From Candidatus Geothermocultor quzhuomuensis (GTDB lineage Bacteria > Actinomycetota > Aquicultoria > Geothermocultorales > Geothermocultoraceae): a stretch of DNA of 64,000 nucleotides. The translations under genes were made by a program, and so were the position numbers. The notes below the pieces were generated by a model. It made no database searches and was not told the origin of the DNA. It was given only the letters and a program-made list of their open reading frames with translations. How positions within the stretch are numbered: position 1 is the stretch's first letter; the number at the start of each line of letters is the position of its first letter. Shown one piece after another: positions 4,939 through 63,212 of this stretch. Location: assembly GCA_015711795.1 (NCBI GenBank), contig JACVJC010000003.1, positions 44,355 through 108,354 on the forward strand. The letters are read 5' to 3'.

Positions 4939-5577
4939 TCAAATATACTTTTCAGCTAAATCACCAACGATTGGGAACTTATATACCTCTCCACCATAAG
5001 CCTTAATCATTCCAACAATCCAAAAGATAAATCCAATAGGACCAAGAATCCAACCAACCATGCTGATTAAGGAGGGAATGAAAGGGATTCGAGCTACTCT
5101 CAAGAATATAGAGAAAATTGGAATAACAATTTGTAAAATTTGTAAAGCACCAAAAAAGATTAATGACTGAAAAGCATGAAAGCGAACAAACTTATTTTTA
5201 TGTTCAATTAAGACAAAAATAAGCCCAGTAAGCCAACCTAGAAGATAGCATAATAAGCCAGCAATGTTTGGGCTTAAACCAGTTGAGGATTCCATCTCAG
5301 GTTGTGTTACTTCTCCTTGGGCTGGAGGAGGTTGAGAAGAAACAGAAGGAGTTGGGACAGCCTGAAGGGGAACAGGTTGAGATAGTGCCTCGGGTTGAGT
5401 TGAAGAAGTAACAGGTGTTTGAGCTGTAACTAAGCTTTGAGCACAATTAGGGCAATAACTTTTCTCATCAACAAGGGTCCGACAATCAATGCAAATTTCA
5501 TTACCACATTTTACGCAAATAGCAACACTGTTTTTGTCAGGATGATTTACGCAGGCCAACATCTCACCCCCTTTCAA
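4939..5577 (-). CDS. zinc-ribbon / Pro-rich linker / DUF4870 (YteJ-like) membrane protein fusion
   Basis: N-terminal CxxC...CxxC pairs (CVNHP..CVKCGNEICIDC...CPNC). A Pro/Ser/Thr-rich linker follows. C-terminal AGLLCYLLGWLTGLIFVLIEHKNKFVRFHAFQS is the DUF4870 signature. Confidence 0.6.
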   Translation of the reverse strand: MKGGEMLACVNHPDKNSVAICVKCGNEICIDCRTLVDEKSYCPNCAQSLVTAQTPVTSSTQPEALSQPVPLQAVPTPSVSSQPPPAQGEVTQPEMESSTGLSPNIAGLLCYLLGWLTGLIFVLIEHKNKFVRFHAFQSLIFFGALQILQIVIPIFSIFLRVARIPFIPSLISMVGWILGPIGFIFWIVGMIKAYGGEVYKFPIVGDLAEKYI

Positions 5578-7572: not shown

Positions 7573-7929
7573 TTAAACTTTCACCTCAGCCGAATATTTC
7601 TCTGCTAACTCTCCAACAATGGGGAGCTTAAATTTCTCTCCTTGATAAGCTTTAACCAAGCAGTAAATCCATAAGATAAAGCTAACAGGGGCAGCTAAAA
7701 TAGAGATTATCCAACCTACAAGGGGAATAAAGCCGCCGACTAAGGAAATAACAAATAAACCGCCAAATGTTATGATTGATTGCATAGCATGAAATTTGAC
7801 AGTACTATCTTCCTTCTCAATTAGAAAAAAGATTAAACCAGTTAACCAGCCAGCCAAATAACAAAGAAGAGCAGCTATATTAGGAGCTAAGCCTGTAGAG
7901 CTTTTGGGAGACTCAGGAGCTTCAGCCAC
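7573..7929 (-). CDS. DUF4870 (YteJ-like) membrane protein
   Basis: GLAPNIAALLCYLAGWLTGLIFFLIEKEDSTVKFHAMQS matches the DUF4870 signature and is paralogous to 4939..5577 and 54038..54496. Confidence 0.55.
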   Translation of the reverse strand: MAEAPESPKSSTGLAPNIAALLCYLAGWLTGLIFFLIEKEDSTVKFHAMQSIITFGGLFVISLVGGFIPLVGWIISILAAPVSFILWIYCLVKAYQGEKFKLPIVGELAEKYSAEVKV

Positions 7930-8191
7930 TTTGCACCTCCTTTCAAAGAGCTAATTGCTAAATTCTAACATTCTCGAGGTCCATTTTATGGCTCAAAATT
8001 ATCACTTAAATCGTAAGGTTGTCAATAAAATTCTCGAAAAGGAGTAAGAAAGCAAGTAGTAAAAGAAAGGTAGCTTATATTTTAGCGGAGCTCACTCCAT
8101 AAATTTGTTTCCAGAAAAAAGAGAGTAGAAATTCAAGCTAGGCTACATTAGAAATTGCTATGACTTTTCTAAATAATTCTTAAGTTGCCTC

Positions 8192-10827: not shown

Positions 10828-12952
<2,125 letters not shown>

Positions 12953-13283
12953 TATTCATCCTCATCTCAATAAGCTGCTTTATTCCACTTTTCTACCAGT
13001 GGAAATTATAACATAAAAAGCTGAAGACTATCGCTTGAAGATAGAATAAATAAAATAAAAGAGAATAGCTAAAAATCAAGTTGCTACAATTAAGTGGCAA
13101 ATGAAAGACAAAAGCTTTAATTAATCAAATAACAAGTTCTTCAAGCAAAACTACCTGACCATCAATATTCCAATATTCTTAAGAATTTGAGAATAAAATT
13201 TGAGCAAGATTAGAAGCTATTCTTAAAAAACTTAGCGGTTTAACTATTTTTAACACCTTCACAGCTTTAAAAAGTGCTAAAAA

Positions 13284-14228
13284 TTAAATGTAAATCTTAA
13301 TTTTGGATTTTTTCCGTTGGTTTTTAAGCCAGTCTTCTAAATATTTCTCCTGGTTCTCTTTTTTAATAGCGTTAACAATTTCTTTTTTTGCTTGTTCAAA
13401 AGATTTTTTCTTAACTTTTTTATCTACTAACTTAATAATGTACCAACCAGCACTAGTTTGAATTGGCTCACTCACTTCGCCTTCCTTAAGCAAAAAAACC
13501 TTATCAGCTAGCTCAGCAGGTAACTCCTCTTTCTTCTTCCAGCCCCAATCTCCACCTCTGTATTTTGTCTCTGAATCAATAGAATATCGGCGAGCTTGGG
13601 AAGAGAAACTTTTCCCTTCCTCTAAATTAGAGTAAACCTTTTTAGCTCCCTCTTCTTCTTTAACCAAAATTTCTTTCAATTTAGCTTCCTGAGAAATAAT
13701 GAATTTATCTTGGTTTTTTCCATAATAATCTCTTGCTTCTCGATCACTTACTTTCACAGAAGAGATAATCTTTTCTACTGCTCTCTCGATTGTAAGATTC
13801 CTTTTGATGTTCTCCTTCAAACTCTTTTCTGTCATTCCCTTACTCTTCAAAGTTTGCTTAAAAGCTTTCTCTCCACTAAACATCTTTCTTATCTTGTTAA
13901 GCTTCTCTTCAACTTCCTTTTCCCCTACCTTGACACCTAACTTAAGAGATTCTCCAATGATAAGTTCATCATTTATCATCGCGGTTAAAATTTTCTCTCG
14001 AAAATCTTTTTCAAGTTCTTTGCCTCTTTCCCCAGCTAAAAGACCCCCGTGACTCGCTTTTAAATCATTAATAATCTTATCGATCTCTTCTTGGTAAATT
14101 TTCTTTCCATTAACTTCAGCAACAACTCTTCTCCCCTCGCAGCTTGGAAGAACAATCACCCCTAAAAAAATAAAAAGACATGTTAAAATAAAAAAATATT
14201 TTTTCATCTCGCTTCTCCTTTCCATCAA
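13284..14228 (-). CDS. peptidyl-prolyl cis-trans isomerase, SurA/PrsA family (parvulin domain)
   Basis: Signal peptide, a SurA-N-like helical region and a C-terminal parvulin motif (VSEPIQTSAGWYIIKL). Confidence 0.65.
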   Translation of the reverse strand: MMERRSEMKKYFFILTCLFIFLGVIVLPSCEGRRVVAEVNGKKIYQEEIDKIINDLKASHGGLLAGERGKELEKDFREKILTAMINDELIIGESLKLGVKVGEKEVEEKLNKIRKMFSGEKAFKQTLKSKGMTEKSLKENIKRNLTIERAVEKIISSVKVSDREARDYYGKNQDKFIISQEAKLKEILVKEEEGAKKVYSNLEEGKSFSSQARRYSIDSETKYRGGDWGWKKKEELPAELADKVFLLKEGEVSEPIQTSAGWYIIKLVDKKVKKKSFEQAKKEIVNAIKKENQEKYLEDWLKNQRKKSKIKIYI

Positions 14229-17200
14229 TTTTGAAGTAAGCGTATTATATCACTTAAGAAAAGAGGCAAAAAAGATAAAATTTCTTTTTTATTAATACTA
14301 ATTGACCCTACTCCATAAACTAATTTAAACATAGGATATTTCTTCTTGAGTTCCTGGTAGACTTGGGGGATGCTCTTTCCCTTTAAGAGGAGTTGACCTT
14401 TACGGTAAGAAATCTCACTTAATTGAGCCTCTCGGGCTTGGGATTTTATTTCACATATTTTAATTAAATTTTCAGTTTCACAAGGGATTTCCCCAAACCT
14501 ATCCTCAAGTTCTTCTCTTAATTTTCTTGTATCTTTTAAATTTCTTAAAGAAGCCATCTTTTTGTAAATTTCAAGCCTCAAACTACCCTCAATGTAATCT
14601 TCAGAAATAAATGCACTTACCGGTAAATCAATCTTCACCTCTACCTCTTCTTTAACTAGCTTTCCCTTAATCTCCTCAACTGCTTTCTTAAGAAGGTCCA
14701 TGTAAAGCTCAAAGCCAAGTAAAGAGATATGGCCATGCTGTTCAGGACCGAGCAAGTTACCAGCTCCCCTAATCTCTAAATCTTTTAAAGCAATTTTGGC
14801 GCCCGAACCTAATTGGGTAAAATCAGATAAGGTTTTTAACCTTTCTAACGCTGCTTCTGTTAAGACGCTTTCAGGTTGGTAAAAAAAGTAAGCATAAGCT
14901 CTCTTGTCTGAGCGACCAACTCGCCCTCTCAGCTGATAACCCTGAGCTAACCCTAGTTTATCAGCTTCATCTACGATTAAAGTATTAACAGTTGGAATAT
15001 CAATGCCTGATTCAATAATGGTAGTGCAAACTAAAACATTATATTTCATTTTTAAAAAGTCAACCATCACTTTCTCTAGCTCTTCCTCATCCATTTGACC
15101 ATGAGCTACCGCTAATTTAACTTGAGGAACTAACTTCCTTACCTGCTCAGCTACCTGATAAACATCCTCAACTCGATTGTGAACAAAATAAACTTGACCT
15201 CCTCTTTCAATCTCCCTCAAAATTGCTCTTTTGACTAAACTCTTGTCGTATTCACCGACATAAGTTGAGATGGGGAACCTGTCTTCAGGAGGGGTTTCAA
15301 TAACACTCAAATCCCTAATTCCGCTTAAAGACATTTGCAAAGTTCGAGGAATAGGAGTTGCGGAAAGAGATAAAACATCGACTGTTTTTTTTATTGCTTT
15401 TAAGCGCTCCTTTTGGGAAACACCAAAGCGATGCTCCTCATCGATGATGAGAAGACCTAAATCTTTTGGTTTAAGGTCAGGTGAGAGAAGGCGATGAGTC
15501 CCAATTAAAATATCAATTTTGCCTTGGCTAAAATCTTCAATGATTTTCGCTTGCTCCTTTTGAGTCCGAAACCTAGAGAGAAATTCTATGAAGATCGGGA
15601 ATGGGGCTAACCTTTCTTTAAAGGTATTAAAGTGTTGCTGAACTAAAATAGTGGTGGGAGCTAAAAGTATAACTTGCTTTCCATCCATAACACACTTAAA
15701 AGCCGCCCTAATAGCTACCTCAGTTTTTCCATACCCAACATCACCTAATATTAGCCTTTCCATCGGCTTGGGCTTCTCCATATCTTTTTTAACCTCTTCA
15801 ATTGTCTTCAATTGGTCAATAGTCTCTTGATAAGGGAAGGATTCCTCAAGTTCAGCTTGCCAAGGAGTATCAGGAGAAAAGGCATGCCCTTGAAGACATT
15901 CCCTTTCTGCATAAAGCTTAATGAGGTCAATGGCGAGTTTTTTAATTCCCTTCTTTGCCCGAGCTTTGACTCTTGCCCATTCACTTGAGCTAAGACGATT
16001 TACTTTAGGTAGCTTGTTGTCCCCCCCAATATATTTAGAGACTCGGTCTAACTGGTAAGTAGGAACCTTTAAAAGTCCATCTAAGTATTCAAGAACAAGA
16101 TACTCTTTAGTAGCTCCATCAACCACTATTTTTTCTATTCCCTTGTAAATGGCTACTCCATGTCGTGAATGAACTACATAATCACCTGGTTCTAAATCAG
16201 GTGGAGAAAGAGCTGAAATCGATTGAGTAGAAATTCTTTCGCGTCGAGTTAAAGAAGGGAAAATTTCTTCCTGAGGAATCAAAGCTAAATTAATTTCAGG
16301 ACAAATAAATCCTTGCTTAATTTCACCCTCAAGTAAAATTAATCTGCCTAACAAGTCTTTTCCTCTCCCCTCTTCTAAAGAAAAAATAGGATTTAAACCC
16401 CAATCCCAGAGTATTTCTTTCATTCTTTGAAAGAAACCCTTTTCAAAAACGAGGAGCGTAAGGAATTTTTTTTCTTCTAACTCCCTAAGTAATCTCTCGA
16501 GTCTTTCAATTTTTCCCATCAAAGGGGGAAGATTATCCGACCTTATTTCAACAAGATCCTTCTTGCCCTTTTCATGAAAAGAAAGAAAATTCAGCCTTAA
16601 GAAAGGGGAAAAAGAAAGATCTTTTAAGGAAAATAAATAAGGTTGAGGAGGAAAGGGAATTTTTTTCTCAAAAGTTAAGTAATCTAAGGTTTCTTGATAA
16701 AGGTTAACTATCTTTTCCTCTTCCTTTTCAATTTTTTTAGGTTCATTTAAGACGAAAATGCTTTTTGGAGAGAGGTAATCAAGAAAACAATCAAGCTTAG
16801 GGTAAAGAAAGGGAAGATAAATTTCAGAACCTTCAAAGTACTGAAGTTCTTTTAATTTAGCTAAATCCTCTTGGGGAAAGAGGGAAGAGTCCAAATTCTT
16901 CTCAAGCCTCATCACATCTTCTTTTCTCAAAACGATTTCCCGACAAGGAAAAAGATAAAACTCATTAAGAGTAGAAAATGAGCGTTGATTTGCAACCATA
17001 AATTGGCGAATCGACTCAATCTCATCTCCAAAAAATTCAATCCTTAAAGGGTGAGATTGGTTTGGTGGAAAAATATCGATAATTCCTCCTCTTAAACTAA
17101 AATCTCCCCGCTCTTCCACCATCTTTCTTCTTTCATAACCAAAATTTTTTAAGCAATTGATTAAATTAGAGTGGTCAAATATTTTCCCAACTTGAAAATG

Positions 17201-17653
17201 AACAAAGCGAGGTGAATAATAAGATAAAGGAGTAAAGCCTGGCAAAAAACCTTTAAGTGAAGAAACAACAGTCATTTTTTTTCCATCTTCAAGAAAGTTT
17301 AAAATCTCTAACCGTTCTGAGACAACCTTTTTACTAGGAGCCATCCTTTCTAGTAACAACTCTTCCCGCTCCGGTAAAAACTTAACATTTTCCAAGAAAA
17401 AAGAGAGGTCTTGATAGTAAATCTTCTGCTCCTGAAGAGTGTCAGTTAAAATAAAAAAAGTCCTTTTAAAATAGTTCTCTAAATATGCAATTAAAAAGGG
17501 CCTTAAAGAAGAGGCAGCTAAAATAAAAACTTCTCCTTGATTTAGCCTTTTCTTAATCAATTTAAATTGGTTGCTTTCTTCAATTATTGGTTTTAAAAAC
17601 TTAAATTTTTTATTAATCATTTCCAACACCAAATGGGTCTGGTTAAAATTCAC
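14225..17653 (-). CDS. mfd: transcription-repair coupling factor Mfd
   Basis: 1142 aa. UvrB-like N-terminus, CarD/RNAP-interacting domain, DEAD/DEAH helicase motifs (GDVGYGKTEVA, DEEHRFG) and a TRCF C-terminal domain. Confidence 0.9.
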   Translation of the reverse strand: MNFNQTHLVLEMINKKFKFLKPIIEESNQFKLIKKRLNQGEVFILAASSLRPFLIAYLENYFKRTFFILTDTLQEQKIYYQDLSFFLENVKFLPEREELLLERMAPSKKVVSERLEILNFLEDGKKMTVVSSLKGFLPGFTPLSYYSPRFVHFQVGKIFDHSNLINCLKNFGYERRKMVEERGDFSLRGGIIDIFPPNQSHPLRIEFFGDEIESIRQFMVANQRSFSTLNEFYLFPCREIVLRKEDVMRLEKNLDSSLFPQEDLAKLKELQYFEGSEIYLPFLYPKLDCFLDYLSPKSIFVLNEPKKIEKEEEKIVNLYQETLDYLTFEKKIPFPPQPYLFSLKDLSFSPFLRLNFLSFHEKGKKDLVEIRSDNLPPLMGKIERLERLLRELEEKKFLTLLVFEKGFFQRMKEILWDWGLNPIFSLEEGRGKDLLGRLILLEGEIKQGFICPEINLALIPQEEIFPSLTRRERISTQSISALSPPDLEPGDYVVHSRHGVAIYKGIEKIVVDGATKEYLVLEYLDGLLKVPTYQLDRVSKYIGGDNKLPKVNRLSSSEWARVKARAKKGIKKLAIDLIKLYAERECLQGHAFSPDTPWQAELEESFPYQETIDQLKTIEEVKKDMEKPKPMERLILGDVGYGKTEVAIRAAFKCVMDGKQVILLAPTTILVQQHFNTFKERLAPFPIFIEFLSRFRTQKEQAKIIEDFSQGKIDILIGTHRLLSPDLKPKDLGLLIIDEEHRFGVSQKERLKAIKKTVDVLSLSATPIPRTLQMSLSGIRDLSVIETPPEDRFPISTYVGEYDKSLVKRAILREIERGGQVYFVHNRVEDVYQVAEQVRKLVPQVKLAVAHGQMDEEELEKVMVDFLKMKYNVLVCTTIIESGIDIPTVNTLIVDEADKLGLAQGYQLRGRVGRSDKRAYAYFFYQPESVLTEAALERLKTLSDFTQLGSGAKIALKDLEIRGAGNLLGPEQHGHISLLGFELYMDLLKKAVEEIKGKLVKEEVEVKIDLPVSAFISEDYIEGSLRLEIYKKMASLRNLKDTRKLREELEDRFGEIPCETENLIKICEIKSQAREAQLSEISYRKGQLLLKGKSIPQVYQELKKKYPMFKLVYGVGSISINKKEILSFLPLFLSDIIRLLQN

Positions 17654-54037: not shown

Positions 54038-54496
54038 ATGGAGGTGGAAAAATTGGACGAGCCCCGAGAACCTTCTGAAGGTAAGGAAGGAAAGGAACTA
54101 GAAGAAGGGGAGGCAAGGGTATATGCGAGGGAAGCATCAACACTCGAACCACATATGGCAGCTGCTTTGTGCTACTCTTTAGGTTGGTTAAGTGCTTTAA
54201 TTATCTTCTTTGTTGAAAAAAGAAGCCGCTATGTGAAATTTCATGCAATCCAAGCTCTTCTCTGGAGTGTAGGAGCTTTAATTGTCTGGTTAATCTTAGG
54301 AATTTTGTGGGTTGTCCTTGTTCCCCTTGGAGTCGCCAATTTTTTCTTTAAGATAATTGGAATGATTATAATGGTAACTTTTTTTGGTTGGGGCATAGGC
54401 AATGTTTATATGTGGTTAATTTTAATGTTCAAGGCTTATAAGGGAGAATGGCATAAGATTCCTATTTTAGGTGACAAGGCAGAAGAAATTGCTTAG
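54038..54496 (+). CDS. DUF4870 (YteJ-like) membrane protein with acidic N-terminal extension
   Basis: HMAAALCYSLGWLSALIIFFVEKRSRYVKFHAIQAL is the DUF4870 signature. Third paralogue in the window. Confidence 0.55.
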   Translation: MEVEKLDEPREPSEGKEGKELEEGEARVYAREASTLEPHMAAALCYSLGWLSALIIFFVEKRSRYVKFHAIQALLWSVGALIVWLILGILWVVLVPLGVANFFFKIIGMIIMVTFFGWGIGNVYMWLILMFKAYKGEWHKIPILGDKAEEIA

Positions 54497-55542
54497 ATAT
54501 TTTGTTTGATTTCCCCCTTATTTTCAAGACCATTAACGGCGAAGATTTCCCCCTTAGAGTTAACAACAAGAGCTTTAATTTTATTTTCTTTTAAAAATTT
54601 CATCCCCTGATGATATCCTTGGGCAAAAACAGCGGTTGAGAGAATATCGGATAAAGCACATGAATCTTTAGTCAAAATTGAAACACTCATAAAGCCCTTG
54701 GATGGTTTGCCTTCTTTGGGATTTAAAATATGGTGATAGCGCTTCCCCCCTTTAATAAAAAATTTTTGATAGTCACCAGAGGTGGAAATACAATCCCCGT
54801 CAGAAAGGTTTAAGGTAGCGATAATTCCTCCTTTCTCTCGAGGATTTTCTATTCCTACACGCCAAGGCAACCCATTGGGCTTTTTACCAATAACTTTAGT
54901 GGAACTCCCCGCAGTTACAAGGGCGTTTTTAATTCCATTCTTTTTTAAAGCTTCAATAGCTAAGTCAACAGCATATCCTTTAGCTACTCCTCCTAAATCA
55001 ACTTTTACCATACCGTTTAATTTGATAATCTTTCCTTTCTTTTCGAGCAAAATTTTTTCGAAGCCAATTGAATGAAGAGCAGTCAATAACTCTCGAGAGC
55101 TTGGTATTCGTCCCTGATGAGCAAAGCCCCACAAATCCATTAACTTCCCAATACTAATGTCAAAATAACCATTGGTTTTTTTAGCATATTTTTGAGAAAG
55201 AGAAACTATTTCCCAAAGTTCCTTTGAAGCTTTGATTTTTCTCGTTCGATTAAGTTTGGAGAGCTCGCTTTGAGCATCAAAATAATTTAGTTTTTTCTCA
55301 ACCTCTTTCATCCTTAAAAAAGCTTTCTCAATAGACTCTTCTGCCTCTTTCCTATCACGATCAAAGACTTTAATAGTTACCAAAGTATCCAAAAGGAATC
55401 TCTCTTTAGTAACCGGTCTCCTTGAAATTGAGAGTTGATTGGAGAAATAAAAAAGAAAGGTCAAAAAGAGAAAAAAGCAAATTCCTACCAAAGTATTTCT
55501 GATTTTTTTCATAAGTTTTTTCATAAGATTTCTCGAAGCCAA
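54493..55542 (-). CDS. apbE: FAD:protein FMN transferase (ApbE family), lipoprotein/secreted
   Basis: DLGGVAKGYAVD ApbE motif. N-terminal hydrophobic anchor. Confidence 0.8.
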   Translation of the reverse strand: MASRNLMKKLMKKIRNTLVGICFFLFLTFLFYFSNQLSISRRPVTKERFLLDTLVTIKVFDRDRKEAEESIEKAFLRMKEVEKKLNYFDAQSELSKLNRTRKIKASKELWEIVSLSQKYAKKTNGYFDISIGKLMDLWGFAHQGRIPSSRELLTALHSIGFEKILLEKKGKIIKLNGMVKVDLGGVAKGYAVDLAIEALKKNGIKNALVTAGSSTKVIGKKPNGLPWRVGIENPREKGGIIATLNLSDGDCISTSGDYQKFFIKGGKRYHHILNPKEGKPSKGFMSVSILTKDSCALSDILSTAVFAQGYHQGMKFLKENKIKALVVNSKGEIFAVNGLENKGEIKQNI

Positions 55543-55611
55543 CTTTCATAGTATAATAGCATTTGTCAAAGTAAGAAGGTAGTTAGATTCTTTAAGTCAC
55601 TTGGGGGGGAA

Positions 55612-56574
55612 ATGACAACAGTAGGAATTCCTCGAGGTCTTTTATATTACAAATACTATCCCCTTTGGAGCACCTTTTTAGAAAACCTCGGCATTCAAGT
55701 GGTTACTTCCCCTTCAACAAACAAAAAAATTTTCTTAAGGGGATTGAATACAGCTGAATCGGAAGTCTGCTTACCAGTTAAAGTTTTCTATGGTCATGTT
55801 CTAGAGTTAAAAGATCAAGTTGACTTCCTTTTTATTCCGCGGATTGTAAGTGTTGAAGGGAAGGCTTATACTTGCCCTAAATTCTTAGGCCTACCCGATA
55901 TGATTAAAGCAGTAGAAAATACTCTCCCCCCCATTTTAAATCCTACCTTTAATGCCAAGAAAGGCATAAGGGAATATTACCTGACCTTTTACAATTTGGG
56001 TCGAAAATTTACTCAAAATTCAATTAAGATTGCTCAAGCTTTTCTGAAAGCAAGGAAAGCTCAGAGTACATTTAATAGGAACCTTCTAAAAGGGGAACTT
56101 CTTTCAGATATTTTAGAGGGGGGGAAAGCCCCAAATCAAGATAACTGGAGTGGTTTGCGAGTTGGCTTAGCTGGGCACCCTTATAACATTTTTGATTCTT
56201 ATGTTAGTTTAAATTTAATAAAAAAACTAAAGGAGAAAGAGGTCAAGATAGTTACAGGAGAATCAGTACCTCACCGAAGGATTGAGAAGGAAACCAAGCA
56301 CTTACCCAAAAAACTTTTTTGGACCTACGAAAAAGAGGTTGTTGGGTCTATTCTTTACTGGTTAAAAGAAAAGGTAGTTGACGGGATAGTTTATTTACTT
56401 TCTTTTGCCTGTGGCCCTGACTCACTAATTCAAGTTTTAATTGAAGATGAAAGTAAAAAGTTTGGTATGCCCTTAATGCCTTTGACAATAGATGAGCACA
56501 GTGGAGAAGCAGGCCTGGTAACTCGTCTTGAAGCCTTTTTAGATATGCTAGCAAGGAGAAAGAGGAGAAAGTGA
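55612..56574 (+). CDS. CoA-enzyme-activase-associated protein, DUF2229-like (first of two)
   Basis: VGIPRGLLYYKYYPLWSTFLENLGIQVVTSP...SEVCLPVKVFYGHV...VDFLFIPRIV matches the remembered DUF2229 N-terminal pattern. Confidence 0.5.
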   Translation: MTTVGIPRGLLYYKYYPLWSTFLENLGIQVVTSPSTNKKIFLRGLNTAESEVCLPVKVFYGHVLELKDQVDFLFIPRIVSVEGKAYTCPKFLGLPDMIKAVENTLPPILNPTFNAKKGIREYYLTFYNLGRKFTQNSIKIAQAFLKARKAQSTFNRNLLKGELLSDILEGGKAPNQDNWSGLRVGLAGHPYNIFDSYVSLNLIKKLKEKEVKIVTGESVPHRRIEKETKHLPKKLFWTYEKEVVGSILYWLKEKVVDGIVYLLSFACGPDSLIQVLIEDESKKFGMPLMPLTIDEHSGEAGLVTRLEAFLDMLARRKRRK

Positions 56575-57722
56575 AAATAACCTTTCCTCATATGGGGCAT
56601 ATTGAATTTCTCTTAAAAGATTTATTTACCCGCCTTGATGTTGATTTTATCATTCCTCCTCCAAATTCAACTGAGACAATAAAGCTGGGAGTAAGACACG
56701 CTCCTGAACTTGCCTGCTATCCCTTGAAAGTCACTCTTGGTAATTTCATTGAAGGACTTGAAAAAGGTGCAGATACCTTAATTATGGCTGGCGGAGTTGG
56801 GCCTTGTCGCTTTGGTTATTACGCTGAGACTCAAAGGAGAATTCTTAAACAATTAGGGTATAGTTTTGAAATGATACGAGTTGAACCTCCAGCTGCTCAC
56901 CCTATTCAGTTTATTAAATCATTTAAAAGAGTTGCTCCGAAGAAAAAAATTCGGGAAATCTGGAAGGCAATTAAGGTTTCTTTTTCCAAAGCTCAAGTAA
57001 TGGACTTTATTGAAAAAAAAGTTTTAGCTATTAGACCCTTTGAAGTAAATAAAGGCGAGACAACAAAAACCAAGAAGAAAGCAATTAAACTTCTTGATCA
57101 AGCTTTCTTAGAAAGTGAGATTGAAAAAGCAAAGGAAGAAGCGCTTAATCTTTTAGATTCAATCCCTCAAGATAAAGAAAAACCATTTTTAAAAATAGGG
57201 CTAGTTGGAGAATTCTATCTCTTGCTTGAACCCTTTGTTAACTTCGATCTAGAAGAACTCCTTGGCAATATGGATATCTATCTTGAGCGAGGAGTATATT
57301 TAACCGATTGGATTGGCCCCTCCAGTAAAAATCCAGTTATGGGAGTGAGTAATGAAGAAATAGCCCAAGCAGCTTTCCCTTACCTTTCTCACTTCGTAGG
57401 AGGGGAGGGTAGACAAACAGTTGGCCATACCATAATCTTTGCTTACCAAGGTTTTGATGGAGTCATTCACTTGATGCCCTTTACTTGTATGCCCGAACTC
57501 ATCGCCAAGAGTATCTTACCTAAGATAAGTCAAGATTTAGATTTTCCCATTTTAACTTTAGTTTTTGATGAGCAAACGGGTAAAGCTGGTTTAATAACGC
57601 GAATTGAAGCCTTTGTTGAACTTTTAATAAGCCGTCGCCGTAAGGGGCTTTCTCCGAAAAGACTTATCAAAATAGCTTATCGGGGAGATTCACTTGAACT
57701 TACAGGATGGAAAAGAAGATGA
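56571..57722 (+). CDS. CoA-enzyme-activase-associated protein, second DUF2229-like / dehydratase-like subunit
   Basis: ITFPHMGHIEFLLKDLF...APELACYPLKVTLGNF...GGVGPCRFGYYAE parallels the preceding gene. 4-nt overlaps on both sides indicate translational coupling. Confidence 0.45.
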   Translation: MKITFPHMGHIEFLLKDLFTRLDVDFIIPPPNSTETIKLGVRHAPELACYPLKVTLGNFIEGLEKGADTLIMAGGVGPCRFGYYAETQRRILKQLGYSFEMIRVEPPAAHPIQFIKSFKRVAPKKKIREIWKAIKVSFSKAQVMDFIEKKVLAIRPFEVNKGETTKTKKKAIKLLDQAFLESEIEKAKEEALNLLDSIPQDKEKPFLKIGLVGEFYLLLEPFVNFDLEELLGNMDIYLERGVYLTDWIGPSSKNPVMGVSNEEIAQAAFPYLSHFVGGEGRQTVGHTIIFAYQGFDGVIHLMPFTCMPELIAKSILPKISQDLDFPILTLVFDEQTGKAGLITRIEAFVELLISRRRKGLSPKRLIKIAYRGDSLELTGWKRR

Positions 57723-58711
57723 AAAGACTAAAGGGTTATCTTGGAGTTGATGTTGGCTCAGTCAGCACTAATTTAGTCGCTTTATCCGAGGAAGGGGAGG
57801 TAATTTCCTATGTTTATCGCCGAACTCAAGGTCAACCTATTCAAGCAGTTCAAGACGGTTTAGCTGAGCTAAGAGCTCAATTACCTTGCGAAATAGAAGT
57901 TAAAGGGGTAGGAACAACTGGAAGTGCTCGTTATTTAAGTGGTGTCATTGTTGGTGCCGATATTGTTAAGAATGAAATTACAGCCCATGCAGTTGCTGCT
58001 ATGCATGTGATTCCCGAGGTAAGAACTGTTTTTGAAATTGGAGGGCAGGATTCCAAAATAATAATAATAAGAGATGGCATTGTGGTCGATTTTGCTATGA
58101 ATACTGTTTGTGCGGCTGGTACTGGTTCCTTCTTAGACCATCAAGCAACTCGTTTGGGAATTCCAATTGAAAAATTTGGGGAAATAGCCTTAAGAGCAAA
58201 GAAAGGAGCTCAAATAGCTGGTCGTTGCACTGTGTTTGCTGAATCAGATATGATTCATAAGCAACAAATTGGTTATCCAGTCGAAGAAATTGTCTATGGC
58301 TTGTGTGAAGCTCTAGTTCGGAATTACCTTAATAATTTAGGTAAGGGTAAAGACCTTTTACCTCCCATTGTTTTTCAGGGAGGGGTAGCAGCTAATGAGG
58401 GAATTAAGCGAGCCTTTGAAGAAGCTTTAAACGGGGAGGTAATTGTTCCAAAATATCATCATGTTATGGGAGCAATTGGAGCGGCTCTTTTAGCTCAAGA
58501 AGCAACTGATGATGGAGAAATCTCCAATTTTAAGGGCTTTGAAGTATCTCAAATTGATTACGAAACATCTAGCTTTTTCTGTGGTGGCTGTGCTAACAAT
58601 TGTGAAATTGTCAAGATACAAGTGGACGGAGAAGTTTTAGCCCGTTGGGGAGGAAGATGCGGAAAGTGGGAAGTTGATGGTATTGGTAAGCGAAAGGCTC
58701 TTCTCTTCTAA
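57707..58711 (+). CDS. BadF/BadG/BcrA/BcrD-type ATPase (CoA-substrate-specific enzyme activase, HgdC-like)
   Basis: LGVDVGSVSTNLVAL... acetate/sugar-kinase fold. Cluster-bridging Cys (AAGTGSF, ...TVCAAG). C-terminal FFCGGCANNCE tail. Confidence 0.75.
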   Translation: MEKKMKRLKGYLGVDVGSVSTNLVALSEEGEVISYVYRRTQGQPIQAVQDGLAELRAQLPCEIEVKGVGTTGSARYLSGVIVGADIVKNEITAHAVAAMHVIPEVRTVFEIGGQDSKIIIIRDGIVVDFAMNTVCAAGTGSFLDHQATRLGIPIEKFGEIALRAKKGAQIAGRCTVFAESDMIHKQQIGYPVEEIVYGLCEALVRNYLNNLGKGKDLLPPIVFQGGVAANEGIKRAFEEALNGEVIVPKYHHVMGAIGAALLAQEATDDGEISNFKGFEVSQIDYETSSFFCGGCANNCEIVKIQVDGEVLARWGGRCGKWEVDGIGKRKALLF

Positions 58712-58719
58712 ATTCCCAA

Positions 58720-60120
58720 CTATTTTGAGAGATATTCATCGATGGCTCGAGCGGCAGTTCTTCCCGCCCCCATCGCTGAGATTACTGTAGCTGAACCAGT
58801 AACAATGTCTCCGCCAGCAAAAACTCCTTTTTTGCTTGTTCTCCCAATTTCATTGATTTTTATATAGCCTTTCTCATTTAATCTCAAGCCAGGAGTGGTC
58901 GAAGGGAGAAGTGGATTAGCTCGTGTCCCGATAGCAACAACGACAACATCGACATCGAGAATAAATTCTGAACCAGATACTGGAACGGGGCGGCGTCTGC
59001 CCGTTTCATCAGGTTCACCAAGAATCATTTTAATACATTCAATCGCACCTACCCAACCATTTCCTCGCGAAAGAATTCGCTTGGGTAAAGTAAGAAAAAT
59101 AAACTCAACTCCCTCTTCTTTAGCATGTTCAAACTCCTCATGCCGGCAAGGCATCTCCTTTTCAGATCTTCGGTAGACAAGATAAACTTTCTTAGCCCCG
59201 AGGCGGAGAGCTGTTCGAGCTGAGTCAAGAGCAACATTGCCCCCTCCTACCACTGCTACTTTTTCTCCCCTCTTAATAGGTGTATCATATTCAGGGAAAA
59301 GATAGGCTTTCATTAAATTAACACGAGTTAAGAATTCATTTGCAGAGTAAACTCCATTTAAATTTTCTCCTTCAATTCCCATAAAAAGGGGTAATCCCGC
59401 TCCAATACCAATGAAAACAGCTTGATATTCTTGATTAAGAAGTTCGTCAATGGTAACTGTCTTTCCAACTACCACATCAGTTTGAATTTTAACCCCCATC
59501 TTTTGAAGAAATTCTATCTCTGCCTGAACAACTTTTTTGGGTAATCTAAATTCAGGGATACCATAAACTAAAACGCCACCTGGCTTGTGTAAAGCTTCAA
59601 AAATAGTTATATCGTAACCCAATTTGACTAAATCACCAGCCACTGTTAGACCAGATGGTCCCGAACCAATAACCGCTACTTTTTTCCCATTGGGTTTTGG
59701 CACTTCAAACCCTTCAACCAGACCTTTTTCTCTCTCAAAATCAGCCACAAACCTTTCTAATCTCCCAATAGCAATTGGTTCATATTTTTTCCCCAAAGTA
59801 CAATACTTTTCACACTGGTCTTCTTGAGGACAAACGCGTCCACAAATAGCTGGGAGAATATTTTTCTCTTTGATTTTCTTTACCGCTTTTAAGAAATCTC
59901 CTTCTTTTACAAACTGGATAAAGGCTGGTATGTCTACCTCAACTGGACAGCCCCCTACACAAGGAGCTTTCTTACAAGAAAGGCATCTTTCTGCTTCCGC
60001 AATAGCGTTTTTCACACTATAACCTAAAGCCACTTCGTTAAAATTCTCTATTCTTACCAGAGGTTCTTGCTCCGGCATAGGAGTTTTTTTAGGATTAATT
60101 TCTTTCTTTTTCTCTGCCAT
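58720..60120 (-). CDS. nfnB: NADPH-dependent glutamate-synthase-small-subunit-like oxidoreductase (NfnB/SudA/GltD family)
   Basis: N-terminal Fe-S Cys clusters (CLSCKKAPCVGGCP, CGRVCPQEDQCEKYC). FAD and NAD(P) Rossmann motifs (VAVIGSGPSGL, VAVVGGGNVALD). Confidence 0.8.
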   Translation of the reverse strand: MAEKKKEINPKKTPMPEQEPLVRIENFNEVALGYSVKNAIAEAERCLSCKKAPCVGGCPVEVDIPAFIQFVKEGDFLKAVKKIKEKNILPAICGRVCPQEDQCEKYCTLGKKYEPIAIGRLERFVADFEREKGLVEGFEVPKPNGKKVAVIGSGPSGLTVAGDLVKLGYDITIFEALHKPGGVLVYGIPEFRLPKKVVQAEIEFLQKMGVKIQTDVVVGKTVTIDELLNQEYQAVFIGIGAGLPLFMGIEGENLNGVYSANEFLTRVNLMKAYLFPEYDTPIKRGEKVAVVGGGNVALDSARTALRLGAKKVYLVYRRSEKEMPCRHEEFEHAKEEGVEFIFLTLPKRILSRGNGWVGAIECIKMILGEPDETGRRRPVPVSGSEFILDVDVVVVAIGTRANPLLPSTTPGLRLNEKGYIKINEIGRTSKKGVFAGGDIVTGSATVISAMGAGRTAARAIDEYLSK

Positions 60121-60179
60121 CTAACTTTTCTAAAGTTACTCCTTTCCCACTAATGAAAATTTTAAAATGCTTTATAAAA

Positions 60180-61007
60180 TTAGCTTGCTTTTTCACTTAA
60201 GGATTCTAAAGCTATTTTTTCCTCTTCAAGGTACACCTTTTGCCGAGATAAAAGGAGGTTCCAATCAACAAGGTGTCCATCAAAGTCAGGACCATCAACA
60301 CAACAAAATTTTGTCTTTTCTCCAACCTCAACTCGGCAAGCACCACACATTCCAGTTCCATCAACCATAATTGGGTTCAAACTAACGATTGTTTTTATCT
60401 TTTCTGGCTTTGTCACTTCTGAGACAAACTTCATCATAATAGCTGGACCAATAGCAATAACTAAATCGACCTTATTTTCTTTGATTAGTTCCTTTAAAGC
60501 ATCAGTTACTAATCCATGGCGACCTTTAGAACCATCGTCTGTTGTAATATGAAGCTCATGAGAGACAGCAAGTAAATTACCTTCTAATATTAGTAGTTCT
60601 TTGCTTCTTGCCCCCAAAATAGTGATGACATAGTTTTTAGCTCTTTTTAGTTCTCGAGCTATAGGGAAAATCGGGGCTGCTCCAATTCCTCCAGCTACAC
60701 AAATAACCTTTCCATATTTTTTAATCTCTGTTGGCTTTCCTAAAGGTCCCACTAAATCAACAATTTTATCTCCAACTTTTAATGAGGCTAGTTTCTTGGT
60801 CGTTTTCCCCACCGCTTGGAAAACTAAGGTGATGCTTTTATTTTGGCTTTTAAAGTCGACAATAGTCAAAGGGATTCTTTCACCAACCTCATCAACTCGA
60901 ATAATGACAAATTGACCAGGCAAAGCTTTCTTTGCCACTTCTTCAGCTTTAACTTCAATTAAGTAAATCTCAGGAGCCAACTCTTCTTTTTTTAAAATTT
61001 CAAACAT
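60180..61007 (-). CDS. nfnA: ferredoxin-NADP reductase-like subunit with [2Fe-2S] (NfnA/SudB/PyrK-like)
   Basis: FAD-binding barrel N-terminus (RIPLTIVD), NAD loop (VAGGIGAAPI), C-terminal CGACRVE...CCVDGP cluster motif. Confidence 0.75.
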   Translation of the reverse strand: MFEILKKEELAPEIYLIEVKAEEVAKKALPGQFVIIRVDEVGERIPLTIVDFKSQNKSITLVFQAVGKTTKKLASLKVGDKIVDLVGPLGKPTEIKKYGKVICVAGGIGAAPIFPIARELKRAKNYVITILGARSKELLILEGNLLAVSHELHITTDDGSKGRHGLVTDALKELIKENKVDLVIAIGPAIMMKFVSEVTKPEKIKTIVSLNPIMVDGTGMCGACRVEVGEKTKFCCVDGPDFDGHLVDWNLLLSRQKVYLEEEKIALESLSEKAS

Positions 61008-61196
61008 CCCTTGCCACCCTCGTTTATAAAAATAGTGAAAGCTAATCGTTGACTAAATTAAACAACATGATATTATTATCGCTAATCAGAGTTATGTCTA
61101 AACTAGTATAATTTAACAAAAAGATTAGAGGCAAGAAAAAATTACAAATAGTTTTACTCAAAAAGGAAAATAAAAAAGTTTGAGCAAGGAGGGGCA

Positions 61197-63212
61197 TTGA
61201 GTTATAATCAGGAAAAGCTCCAGAATCAATTTGTTATTCTCCGGTGGATTGTTCTTTTTGCTTTAACCTTTTATTTTCTTCAATCTTTTCCAGAAGCAAG
61301 ATTTTATACACTTCTTTTATTTTCTTTAGGTTTACTTTACCTCCTTGCATACCATCTTCTCCGTCCTTATTCCCGATTTAGTTCAAGAAAAATTGATGGG
61401 CTAATTTTATTAATCGATACCTTTTTTGTTGTTATGATAAGTCCTTTCTTTGGCGGTTTGGCAGGAAACGCTTACCTTCTTTACCTCGCAGTTATTTTAG
61501 AATCAGTTTATGAGTTTAGTCTTCTCGGTGCTTTTTTTGTGATAGGAGGAATACTTCTTTTAAATGCTTCTATCTATACCCTCACTCATAGTCCTTTCTG
61601 GTCTCCTTCAAGCTTTCTTAAAGAGCCGTTGCGAATATTAGCTACTATCCTGATAGTCCTTGCGGGAAGCATATTTTGTCAAGTTCAAAAAGAAGAAATC
61701 CTTAAACAAAAAGAAACCTTAAAAAACCTCCAAGAAAGGATAAAACAACTCTCTGTTTTGGGGAAAATAGTTGGGACAGAAAGGTTTTTATTTGACTTTT
61801 ATGCTCTTTTAAATTTTATTCTTTCACCAGTGAAAGAGGCTCTTCGAGCTGAAACTTTGATTATTAGCCTAAGGGAAGGTGATACTTTAGTTCACCAAGT
61901 AGTTATCGGAAAGGGAAAGGAAACTTTGGAAAGAAAAAGAATGAAAATAAACCACAACTTGCCAAGCTTGACTATTAAGAAAGAAAAAACTCTCCGAGTA
62001 GAACCGAAAAACCTGACCCAGTTTTCAAGAGAGTTAAAATGCTTCAGCTTTTTGAATCCTAATACAGTTATTTCAGCTCCGATAAAAAGTGAAGAGGGAA
62101 TTATTGGGGTAGTTACTGCCATCAATAAGGAAGAGAGAAAAATTTTTTCACCTGACGACGCAGAATTTTTAGGAATTGCAACTCACCACTTTCGAGCAAT
62201 GATTAAAGAATCCATCTTGCGTCAAGAACTCCACCAAAAAATTAACGAACTTACAGCCATGTCCCAAATCGCTCAAGTGACCACTTCTACACTTAAACTG
62301 GTTGACTTACTTAATCAAGTGCTTCAAGTTCTCATCAAGTTATTTGATGCCTCTTCAGGTTCAATCATGCTAGTCGAGAAGGGCCTTTTGAAAATTAGAG
62401 CAGCTCATGGCCTTCATCCATCAATAGTTAAAAGGGCCCGAAGAAAGCTTGGAGAAGGCATTAGTGGTTATGTAGCTCAAGAGAGAAAAAGCCTCCTCTT
62501 AACCAATCCCCTTGAAGAATCAAAGCTTAAAGGAGTTAAAGAGTCAATTCGTGATTCAGTAATTGCTCCTTTAGAAGCAAGAGAAAATGTTGTAGGTGTT
62601 GTATGTTTAAACAATGAAAACGGAAAAAACCGTTTTACCTCAGAGCACCTTAGACTTTTAGAAGCTCTCTCGAACCAAATCGCTATTGCGGTAGAAAATG
62701 CTCGAATTTACGAATTAACTCAACGAAAATCCGTTACCGATCAGCTTACTGAACTATATAACCACGCTTACTTCTGGGAAAGACTGAATGAAGAGATTGA
62801 GAGAGCAAAAAGGCACTCTCATCATCTTTCTTTAATTATGATAGACATTGATGATTTTAAAAAATATAATGATTTATTTGGTCATCTCAAAGGGGATGAT
62901 TCTTTAAGAACTCTAAGCCAAATATTAAAAACTCAAATTCGCAAATCTGATATTGCTGCTCGATATGGTGGAGAAGAGTTCGCCATTATCCTCCCTGAAA
63001 CTAGCATGAAAAAAGCTTTTGTTTTAGCTGAAAGGGTCAGAAAAGCGGTGGAGGAAAACAAAGATAAATTTCTTTCACCATTAACTATTAGTTTAGGAGT
63101 AGCTACCTTTCCCACCTCAGCACAAGATGCTAAATCTCTTCTTCAACAATCCGATTTTGCCCTTTATGATGCCAAGAAGTCCGGGAAAAATAAGGTTTGT
63201 TCCAAAAAGTAA
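61197..63212 (+). CDS. membrane-anchored GAF-domain diguanylate cyclase (GGDEF)
   Basis: About 5 N-terminal TM helices, two GAF-like regions, RYGGEEFAIILP GGDEF active site. Confidence 0.8.
   Translation: MSYNQEKLQNQFVILRWIVLFALTFYFLQSFPEARFYTLLLFSLGLLYLLAYHLLRPYSRFSSRKIDGLILLIDTFFVVMISPFFGGLAGNAYLLYLAVILESVYEFSLLGAFFVIGGILLLNASIYTLTHSPFWSPSSFLKEPLRILATILIVLAGSIFCQVQKEEILKQKETLKNLQERIKQLSVLGKIVGTERFLFDFYALLNFILSPVKEALRAETLIISLREGDTLVHQVVIGKGKETLERKRMKINHNLPSLTIKKEKTLRVEPKNLTQFSRELKCFSFLNPNTVISAPIKSEEGIIGVVTAINKEERKIFSPDDAEFLGIATHHFRAMIKESILRQELHQKINELTAMSQIAQVTTSTLKLVDLLNQVLQVLIKLFDASSGSIMLVEKGLLKIRAAHGLHPSIVKRARRKLGEGISGYVAQERKSLLLTNPLEESKLKGVKESIRDSVIAPLEARENVVGVVCLNNENGKNRFTSEHLRLLEALSNQIAIAVENARIYELTQRKSVTDQLTELYNHAYFWERLNEEIERAKRHSHHLSLIMIDIDDFKKYNDLFGHLKGDDSLRTLSQILKTQIRKSDIAARYGGEEFAIILPETSMKKAFVLAERVRKAVEENKDKFLSPLTISLGVATFPTSAQDAKSLLQQSDFALYDAKKSGKNKVCSKK

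Follow-up and report, generated by a model that had tools for sequence, protein, structure and literature searches.

In the 64,000-nucleotide (nt) stretch of the genome of Candidatus Geothermocultor quzhuomuensis analysed here (contig JACVJC010000003.1; hereafter the window), three overlapping genes, which we call Red1, Red2 and Act, probably encode a ferredoxin- and ATP-driven radical reductase or dehydratase of the PlsA/PlsR/Ger (DUF2229) branch, with the neighbouring NfnAB as its electron supplier. We put this at roughly 60%, a figure that covers the machinery, the family placement and the supply of electrons by Nfn, and from which the lipid substrate is excluded. Judged by its sequence, the trio is a complete and widespread member of the PlsAR/Ger branch in split form, not an orphan activase among flavin genes. 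The case is built on domain and fold assignments, cysteine conservation, the match of each module to part of a fused protein of PlsA type, the conserved operon and a clade-level linkage to Nfn; together, these features of the locus are no chance pattern. We propose that the trio is a self-contained, oxygen-sensitive system and that it belongs, with this branch, to the benzoyl-coenzyme A (CoA) reductase / 2-hydroxyacyl-CoA dehydratase superfamily.

The locus is laid out as follows, in window coordinates, with protein lengths in amino acids (aa).

55612-56574, plus strand: Red1, 320 aa, a DUF2229 protein, first subunit of a putative [4Fe-4S] reductase/dehydratase heterodimer.
56571-57722, plus strand: Red2, 383 aa, a divergent DUF2229 paralogue in a PlsR-like position, putative second subunit.
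57719-58711, plus strand: Act, 330 aa, an ATPase of the HgdC/HadI/MbdQ type (an "archerase").
58580-58660, plus strand: C-terminal tail motif of Act, C288-x2-C291-x3-C295-x18-C314, a putative extra metal site.
58720-60120, minus strand: NfnB-like large subunit of NADH-dependent ferredoxin:NADP+ oxidoreductase, from matches to the Protein Data Bank (PDB) and TIGR01316.
60180-61007, minus strand: NfnA-like small subunit, flavin adenine dinucleotide (FAD) plus [2Fe-2S], PyrK-like, from PDB and NF004862 matches.
54493-55542, minus strand: ApbE-family FAD:protein flavin mononucleotide (FMN) transferase with an N-terminal hydrophobic anchor (PF02424; PDB 7esa).
61197-63212, plus strand: GAF-GGDEF diguanylate cyclase (Pfam GGDEF and GAF).
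54038-54496, plus strand: DUF4870 membrane protein (PF09685), context only.

The gene coordinates and 4-nt overlaps that a first-pass annotation had given for 55612-58711 agree with the map of open reading frames (ORFs) and with both junctions, which we read directly from the sequence: Red2 starts with a GTG at 56571, in a GTGA overlap, and Act with an ATG at 57719, in an ATGA overlap. The Act start as called here is that of NCBI's own 330-aa call (P0392; P-numbers denote protein records of homologues, and labels L001 to L094 the loci compared). The NCBI call for Red2 (P0123, 376 aa) begins 7 aa downstream, at an internal ATG at 56592, but because homologues conserve residues 1-9 (P6, M8 and G9), the upstream GTG is favoured. 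The nearest relatives are metagenome-assembled genomes (MAGs) of Actinomycetota, in which Red1 is 58% identical and Act up to 78%. No riboswitch or other RNA regulator was found at the locus.

Red1 matches the Pfam model for DUF2229 (PF09989) at 182.2 bits, over profile positions 1-218 of 218, and Red2 matches the same model at 45.6 bits (cut-off 29.4); the paralogy of the two proteins is given by hhalign at a probability of 99.8% (E 1.9e-27). Each contains three cysteines in all: C53 (55768-55770), C88 (55873-55875) and C267 (56410-56412) in Red1, and C49 (56715-56717), C79 (56805-56807) and C306 (57486-57488) in Red2. The motifs CLPVKV, CYPLKV and GPCRFG are present as first quoted, and the cysteines are invariant in 77 orthologues of Red1 and 79 of Red2, sampled from several phyla. 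The structural matches of both proteins are HadB/HadC, the double-cubane cluster protein (DCCP), BzdN/BzdO and MbdN/MbdO, at 9-16% identity, with MbdN and BzdN at the top for Red2. In the HadB/HadC pattern, three cysteines hold a [4Fe-4S] cluster in which one Fe is without a protein ligand, while the homodimeric DCCP has a motif of 7 Cys, of which six bind an [8Fe-9S] cluster (PMC7317905). On motif comparison, the cysteines of Red1 and Red2 follow the HadB/HadC pattern and not the 7-Cys double-cubane pattern. Because of this three-cysteine pattern and the HadBC-type fold, Red1 and Red2 are best regarded as the electron-accepting catalytic pair, of HadBC/BzdNO/DCCP fold, with cluster types assigned by analogy. 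The first-pass annotation had the system inject electrons into an "unidentified target"; on the present reading, Red1 and Red2 are themselves what accepts the electrons, and what was called the target is therefore really a small-molecule substrate.

Act matches PF01869 (BcrAD_BadFG) at 165.4 bits (cut-off 31.5) and TIGR00241 at 195 bits (cut-off 125.4). Its best match among solved structures is MbdQ (3e-40), followed by HadI (1e-35) and HgdC (4e-33), over residues 8-270. C131 (58109-58111) aligns with HgdC Cys127 and C170 (58226-58228) with Cys166, the two residues that in HgdC (structure 1HUX) ligate the [4Fe-4S] cluster bridging the dimer interface, and both C131 and C170 are invariant in 68 of 68 orthologues. 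The family models and these ligand cysteines identify Act as an activator of the HgdC/HadI/BcrAD type, which would make it the site of ATP-dependent electron transfer. Hence the description of the locus as a split system of two DUF2229 paralogues and one HgdC-like ATPase stands. The solved activators stop at about alignment residue 260-270, and Act runs on for some 60 residues more. The tail motif C288-x2-C291-x3-C295-x18-C314, within which CGGCANNCE appears as originally quoted, is invariant in all 68 Act orthologues and occurs in none of the solved activators; the extra cysteine tail noted earlier is thus real. A near-identical motif, with x19 for x18, lies at residues 288-315 of the split Act of Monoglobus. 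From its conservation, we regard the four-cysteine tail as a hallmark of the family. It may be an extra metal site, Fe-S or Zn, and since it directly precedes Red1 in the fused enzyme, one may speculate that it docks on, or relays to, Red1.

The closest functional guide is provided by two fused systems. PlsA/PlsR is the anaerobic plasmalogen synthase of Clostridium perfringens (CPE1194/1195; UniProt Q8XL48, Q8XL47), with single-gene forms in many bacteria (PMC13159169, PMC9702350, PMC12838417), including Enterococcus, Lactococcus, Bifidobacterium and Listeria, and Ger is the glycerol ester reductase of Thermotoga maritima (Tmari_0479) and Desulfatibacillum alkenivorans (SHJ90043), which makes ether lipids (PMC13159169). 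Both have been validated by anaerobic expression in E. coli, and every characterised DUF2229 enzyme acts on glycerolipid esters (PMC13159169, PMC9702350, PMC12838417). In Ger and PlsA, DUF2229 forms the "reduction domain", and the fused proteins combine two BcrAD_BadFG domains with DUF2229 and fragments of HGD-D (PMC13159169). The fused relatives that had been set down as being of unknown substrate are, then, PlsA/PlsR and Ger, the makers of ether lipids (PMC13159169, PMC9702350, PMC12838417).

As a proxy for the fused form we used the sole DUF2229 gene of Listeria monocytogenes (1475 aa, L092:3997-8424), found by tblastn in the plasmid collection; the Listeria plsA/plsR orthologue is reported to be active under anaerobiosis (PMC9702350). 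By Pfam, this protein has two BcrAD_BadFG domains, Act1 and Act2, and DUF2229 at residues 669-886. Act aligns with Act2 (318-634) at 34% identity (E 2e-56, tail included) and more weakly, at 29%, with Act1; Red1 aligns with residues 669-982 at 28% identity (E 5e-28), and Red2 with residues 1037-1234 at 23% (E 4.5e-9). All six cysteine motifs of the Red pair have their counterparts in the fused protein (CFPAK, NCPV and FGCGLD in the Red1 region; ACYPA, GGCRA and FACLPN in the Red2 region), and the tail motif recurs after Act2, at 604-630, as CNLCSNTC-x18-C, with spacing identical to that in the Act of the window. As a family feature, this CxxCxxxCx18C linker is an observation of the present analysis and does not come from a definition in the literature. 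Because the modules have their counterparts in the same order in the Listeria protein, together with the six Red cysteine motifs and the tail, we assign the trio to the PlsAR type, split module for module and with one activation domain. Another fused protein, of 1282 aa in Paraclostridium bifermentans (L094:4192-8040), has two BcrAD_BadFG domains, DUF2229 and 12 cysteines, and no CxxCxxxCx18C linker; its gene is followed by an ABC transporter, and it perhaps represents another subfamily of fused enzymes.

With PlsA/PlsR the trio shares the HgdC-type activation domain, the DUF2229 Red1 module and a divergent Red2/PlsR, and it is predicted to be, like PlsA/PlsR, an anaerobic Fe-S enzyme. The differences are architectural. 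PlsA/PlsR uses one or two genes and two tandem activation domains, whereas the trio uses three genes and one such domain; the tandem is absent from the trio, and throughout the family a single activation domain is carried by a separate downstream gene. Moreover, the order is Red1-Red2-Act in the trio and Act1-Act2-Red1(-Red2) in the fused form, so the latter is not a simple read-through of the split operon; the earlier proposal that the split form is the unfused ancestor is not supported. Ger, which we compared by its published description, is built from the same Pfam blocks B (PF01869), D (PF09989) and H (PF06050 fragment), arranged as BBDHDDH or BBDHDHDH on one polypeptide (PMC13159169), as against DH, DH and B on three in the trio.

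The split form is abundant among anaerobes. Red1, Red2 and Act each have thousands of homologues, and the best 120 for each protein are standalone and of the same length. An exhaustive search of 1.84 billion representatives with Red1 gave 3052 cluster matches, 549 of them at E 1e-30 or better; the best 150 clusters are mostly standalone proteins of about 290-400 aa, with some 11 Red1-Red2 fusions of 690-770 aa, one protein of 514 aa and no full fusion. In a scan with one Red1 motif, at least 596 species-representative genomes carry the split-type motif. The statement that the modules are fused in most genomes is therefore not sustained. Carriers include Actinomycetota (Aquicultor-like, Thermoleophilia and Coriobacteriia), many Bacillota (Pelotomaculum, Thermincola, Moorellales, Natroniella and Thermoanaerobacterium), Atribacterota, Dehalococcoidia and Sumerlaeota, as well as Monoglobus pectinilyticus, a cultured gut bacterium that has the trio. 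Neighbourhoods were counted over 80 species-level loci, to which the metagenome and MAG contexts L001-L011 were added (ten contexts read with gene calls). Wherever the contigs are long enough, the genes of the 80 loci stand in the order Red1-Red2-Act, which makes the trio a conserved unit; the exceptions are Red1-Act-Red2 in L071 and Red1-Red2 fusions in L066 and L074. Those of the 690-770-aa fusions that have a locus context lie at L066:2717-4969, with Act separate, and at L074:448-2550, with no Act nearby, and others are P0245, P0248 and P0259, among further records. Taken together with a concatenated neighbour-joining tree (no support values, indicative only), the homologues place the split trio as a large self-contained family, a deep clade separate from the fused form. 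The literature search found no published description of a split three-gene system and, under the database names of the family, no characterisation.

The second pillar of the argument is NfnAB. The NfnB-like protein matches 4ylf_B of T. maritima at 7.7e-185 and 5jca_L at 6.7e-166 over its full length, and TIGR01316 at 611 bits; the NfnA-like protein matches 5jca_S, the small subunit of Pyrococcus furiosus NfnI, at 2.6e-97, 4ylf_A at 1.5e-81 and NF004862 at 414 bits. With both subunits matching the T. maritima (4YLF) and P. furiosus (5JCA) enzymes over their full length, the assignment as NfnAB is regarded as genuine, and bifurcating activity is predicted. NfnAB adjoins the trio in 17-18 of the 80 species loci, and among L001-L011 NfnA- and NfnB-like genes follow it co-directionally in all ten contexts read, at spacings that range from overlapping genes (L008) through 20 nt (L010) to one or two inserted genes. 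The usual view of NfnAB is that of a housekeeping transhydrogenase; in the present case its link to an operon for an archerase-type reductase extends across a clade, and in L008 the overlapping genes are translationally coupled. In the tree, the Nfn-linked loci are paraphyletic across a deep Actinomycetota-type clade that includes the window, the linkage has been lost in a nested subclade of Thermoleophilia type, and L085 (Sumerlaeota) shows Nfn close to the trio independently. In the window, nfnB and Act converge, their stop codons lying only 8 nt apart, without a terminator. The order in L011, L032 and L087 is Act(+), GGDEF(-), NfnA(+), NfnB(+), and window positions 58712-63212, which read nfnB(-), nfnA(-), GGDEF(+), are the exact inversion of that block; no convincing inverted repeats flank it. 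Because the linkage survives such rearrangements over a wide evolutionary span, the pattern argues for selection on it, and the suggestion that the Nfn context is meaningful is upheld. We consider this clade-level and at times operonic coupling, along with the invariant four-cysteine tail of the ATPase, the most interesting of the new points, and operonic NfnAB offers a concrete, testable source of low-potential electrons.

What we say of the cluster types, of the way in which electrons flow, of the part played by Nfn and, most of all, of the substrate is drawn by analogy from what is known of HgdC/HadI-HadBC, benzoyl-CoA reductase and the DCCP-R/DCCP system. In the scheme we favour, two Act monomers would come together around a single bridging [4Fe-4S] cluster, to which each contributes its C131 and C170. 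Reduced ferredoxin would reduce this cluster, and ATP hydrolysis would drive the electron uphill from Act into the Red1/Red2 heterodimer. Each Red subunit would hold one [4Fe-4S] cluster on its three cysteines, with one Fe free, and at one of the two Red sites the carbonyl oxygen of the substrate would bind the free Fe and accept the low-potential electron. By analogy with PlsAR and Ger, the likeliest chemistry would be one in which a membrane glycerolipid has an ester carbonyl reduced, with or without dehydration, to give a vinyl or alkyl ether. In the lineage of this genome, the adjacent NfnAB would most likely regenerate reduced ferredoxin from NADPH. Each turnover of PlsAR or Ger takes two to four electrons. 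A reductase of this kind uses up its electrons stoichiometrically and would be well served by a dedicated supply of reduced ferredoxin, of which a dehydratase, recycling one electron, would have less need.

Several observations weigh against this scheme. The 23-34% identity to the Listeria proxy is under the 41-55% identity to C. perfringens PlsA/PlsR found for the functionally validated orthologues (PMC12838417), and the neighbour-joining tree puts the fused Listeria protein outside all split trios, at the end of a long branch. According to a 2026 study, Bacillota that possess a complete PlsA or Ger hold, besides, "additional PlsA homologs" that lack the activation domain and whose role is unclear (PMC13274423); should these be the split family, the trio would be a paralogue, and its substrate may be another one. 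Nfn linkage is missing in about three quarters of the loci, NfnAB and the trio are not linked in Bacillota, and in the window nfnBA lies on the opposite strand to the trio; the linkage could be inherited synteny. No phospholipid-synthesis gene is a universal neighbour of the trio. In Bacillota the context is one of spoVA, a TrpB-like gene and lysA, and in L085 the neighbours (thiamine pyrophosphate-dependent E1 alpha and beta, an aldolase and an oxidoreductase) suggest soluble metabolism.

For the substrate, an ester glycerolipid is the leading guess, tentative and held at somewhat less than even odds. It leads because the characterised DUF2229 enzymes use such a lipid, because one clade has a neighbourhood of glycolipid type and because L005 has genes for monogalactosyldiacylglycerol (MGDG) synthase and DedA nearby. 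In the clade in question, of Thermoleophilia/Gaiellales type (L028-L040, e.g. L038:6598-9807), genes for a GT4 glycosyltransferase, a membrane-anchored polysaccharide deacetylase and LPG_synthase_TM (MprF flippase-like) lie directly upstream of Red1 on the same strand, a glycolipid-type cluster with a lipid theme. A different lipid product, the N-glyceroyl alkylamine lipids of some Bacillota, was considered and rejected, as the same lipids occur in the aerobic Thermus and Meiothermus.

The strongest competitor retains the machinery and changes the substrate: the trio would be a paralogue distinct from PlsAR and Ger that acts on a soluble non-lipid compound, such as a carboxylic acid, an ester or a 2-oxo or 2-hydroxy acid derivative. 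We rate it nearly as likely as the lipid substrate. The low identity to the fused protein and the long branch between them speak for it, as do the additional PlsA homologs without activation domain in genomes that already have PlsA or Ger (PMC13274423) and the varied substrates of the superfamily, in which DCCP reduces small molecules (PMC7317905). So does L085, where a packed string (L085:3448-15450) comprises a 443-aa Cys-rich ORF, NfnA, NfnB, E1 alpha, E1 beta, an HpcH-type aldolase, the trio, a P-loop protein and a 2-oxoacid:ferredoxin oxidoreductase, the gene names having been read from translations except for the Nfn pair and the trio, which were matched. In 16 Bacillota loci, moreover, a pyridoxal phosphate-dependent TrpB-like gene lies 44-240 nt downstream of the trio. 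Set against this are the glycerolipid esters used by all characterised DUF2229 enzymes, the membrane-glycolipid-related neighbours of the Thermoleophilia-type clade, the failure of any soluble-metabolism neighbour to be kept across clades, and the lack of a recurring CoA-transferase, CoA-ligase or dehydrogenase partner.

A bolder version of the non-lipid idea seems to us possible but rather unlikely. In it, the split trio would be a widespread and hitherto unrecognised ATP-driven Fe-S reductase, which basal anaerobic Actinomycetota wired to bifurcating NfnAB. NADPH oxidation and ATP hydrolysis would together yield an electron of extremely low potential, and the ATPase would have in its invariant four-cysteine tail a further site for redox chemistry or docking, unseen in solved archerases.

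In some 20 spore-forming Bacillota (L043-L091; e.g. L076:8308-13064, L089 and L091) spoVAC/AD/AE/AF precede the trio by 13-180 nt on the same strand, and the TrpB-like gene and lysA come 44-240 nt after it; there the trio may be co-transcribed with the forespore spoVA operon. The presence of spoVA beside lysA is ancestral synteny in Bacillota. Because of this, and because the trio is equally conserved in Actinomycetota-type lineages without flanking sporulation genes, a role in dipicolinate or sporulation chemistry was set aside.

That the trio is simply a highly diverged 2-hydroxyacyl-CoA dehydratase (HgdAB or HadBC with its activator) or class I benzoyl-CoA reductase is very improbable, despite real likenesses. 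The Red proteins match HadB/C, BzdN/O and MbdN/O in fold, with three cysteines per subunit, Act is nearest to MbdQ, HadI and HgdC, and NCBI names some of the orthologues "2-hydroxyglutaryl-CoA dehydratase". HadBC with its activator HadI (PDB 3O3M, 4EHT) is likewise a paralogous heterodimer of the same fold with three cysteines per subunit, and HadI is likewise a separate homodimeric ATPase, whose ligands, equivalent to HgdC Cys127 and Cys166, are matched in Act. However, identity to HadBC is only 12-16%, and the scores of Red1 and Red2 against PF06050 (HGD-D), 27.7 and 22.0 bits, are under the gathering score of 28.4 and come from the C-terminal 60-75 residues, at profile positions of about 267-342. 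A phmmer search of the PDB gave a marginal match to the last 70 or so residues of Red1 (HadC, DCCP) and none to Red2. HadI has no counterpart to the four-cysteine tail of Act, and genes of a CoA-ester pathway are missing nearby: in about 90 loci (the recurring neighbours of the 80, and L001-L011) there is no CoA-transferase, 2-hydroxyacid dehydrogenase or dienoyl-CoA pathway gene. The class I benzoyl-CoA reductases (BzdNOPQ, MbdONQP; PDB 8S02, 9G87, 9GAI) supply the best sequence match to Act among solved structures and the top structural matches to Red2, and they couple ATP to the stoichiometric consumption of ferredoxin electrons, as is likewise proposed for the trio. Yet they require two different ATPase subunits (BcrA/D or BzdP/Q) and have a different active site, while the trio has one ATPase gene. 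None of the TIGRFAM models for these reductases (BcrB/C, Bzd) matches Red1 or Red2, and the BcrA, BcrD and BzdQ equivalog models score Act far under their cut-offs. We therefore concur with the initial view that this is not an ordinary HgdAB or BcrBC enzyme.

Equally little credence can be given to the idea that ApbE, the trio and NfnAB form one flavin-dependent electron-injection module in which ApbE flavinylates a component. ApbE is securely a flavin transferase (PF02424, 274.6 bits; PDB 7esa, 8e-47) and a divergent neighbour, 69 nt from Red1 in the window, and these parts of the earlier proposal hold; the functional link does not. ApbE adjoins the trio in about 11 of the 80 loci and in L007-L011, always divergently and immediately upstream (53-130 nt from Red1 in the window and its relatives, including L008-L011), and only in the clade of the window. 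Its N-terminus is a hydrophobic anchor (LVGICFFLFLTFLFYF), and an N-terminal membrane anchor is typical of extracytoplasmic ApbE. The flavinylation motif [DEN]xx[ST]GA[ST] has no match in any window ORF of at least 60 aa, including Red1, Red2, Act, NfnA and NfnB, and NfnAB binds its FAD non-covalently (structures 4YLF, 5JCA). ApbE is also missing from many Nfn-linked loci (L015, L017-L019, L021, L024 and L025 among them) and travels with DUF4870 instead, homologues of which adjoin ApbE or the trio in L011, L024, L025, L027, L032 and L047. Because ApbE is divergent, membrane-anchored and linked to DUF4870, with no flavinylation motif in the window ORFs, we treat its adjacency as lineage synteny. 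The window has three membrane proteins of the DUF4870 family, at 4939-5577 (-), about 7576-7950 (-) and 54038-54496 (+).

Lastly, a double-cubane system (DCCP with its reductase, DCCP-R) that reduces small molecules at an [8Fe-9S] cluster is very improbable, because DCCP is homodimeric with a 7-Cys motif (PMC7317905) whereas Red1 and Red2 differ and have three cysteines each, and because the DCCP model NF040772 scores 16.7 bits against a cut-off of 350.

To our knowledge, PlsA/PlsR and Ger are the only known anaerobic bacterial route from ester to ether lipids. They bear on the "lipid divide" debate and on the question of which organisms make the brGDGTs (glycerol dialkyl glycerol tetraethers of the branched type) used as palaeoclimate markers. 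Published screens for such enzymes searched with fused proteins at full length and filtered by coverage or identity (PMC13159169, PMC13274423), and the split trio would largely escape them because it consists of three short separate proteins at 23-34% identity. It is a complete, conserved three-gene system with its own ATPase, and it keeps every Fe-S ligand of the fused enzymes. Should it make ether lipids, the candidate producers would grow to include uncultured Actinomycetota, Atribacterota and many Clostridia, and the trio would offer mechanistic and structural studies a minimal enzyme, about 1030 residues in all, whose subunits could be made one at a time. Should it not, it would represent a new substrate class for archerase-driven chemistry.

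A minor observation concerns the wider surroundings. The window carries enolase and Mfd genes at 10828-17653, about 40 kb from the trio, and in Thermoleophilia-type loci (L034 and L038) enolase, MazG and Mfd lie just downstream of it; this looks like what is left of a more extended synteny and would fit a window of Actinomycetota-related origin.

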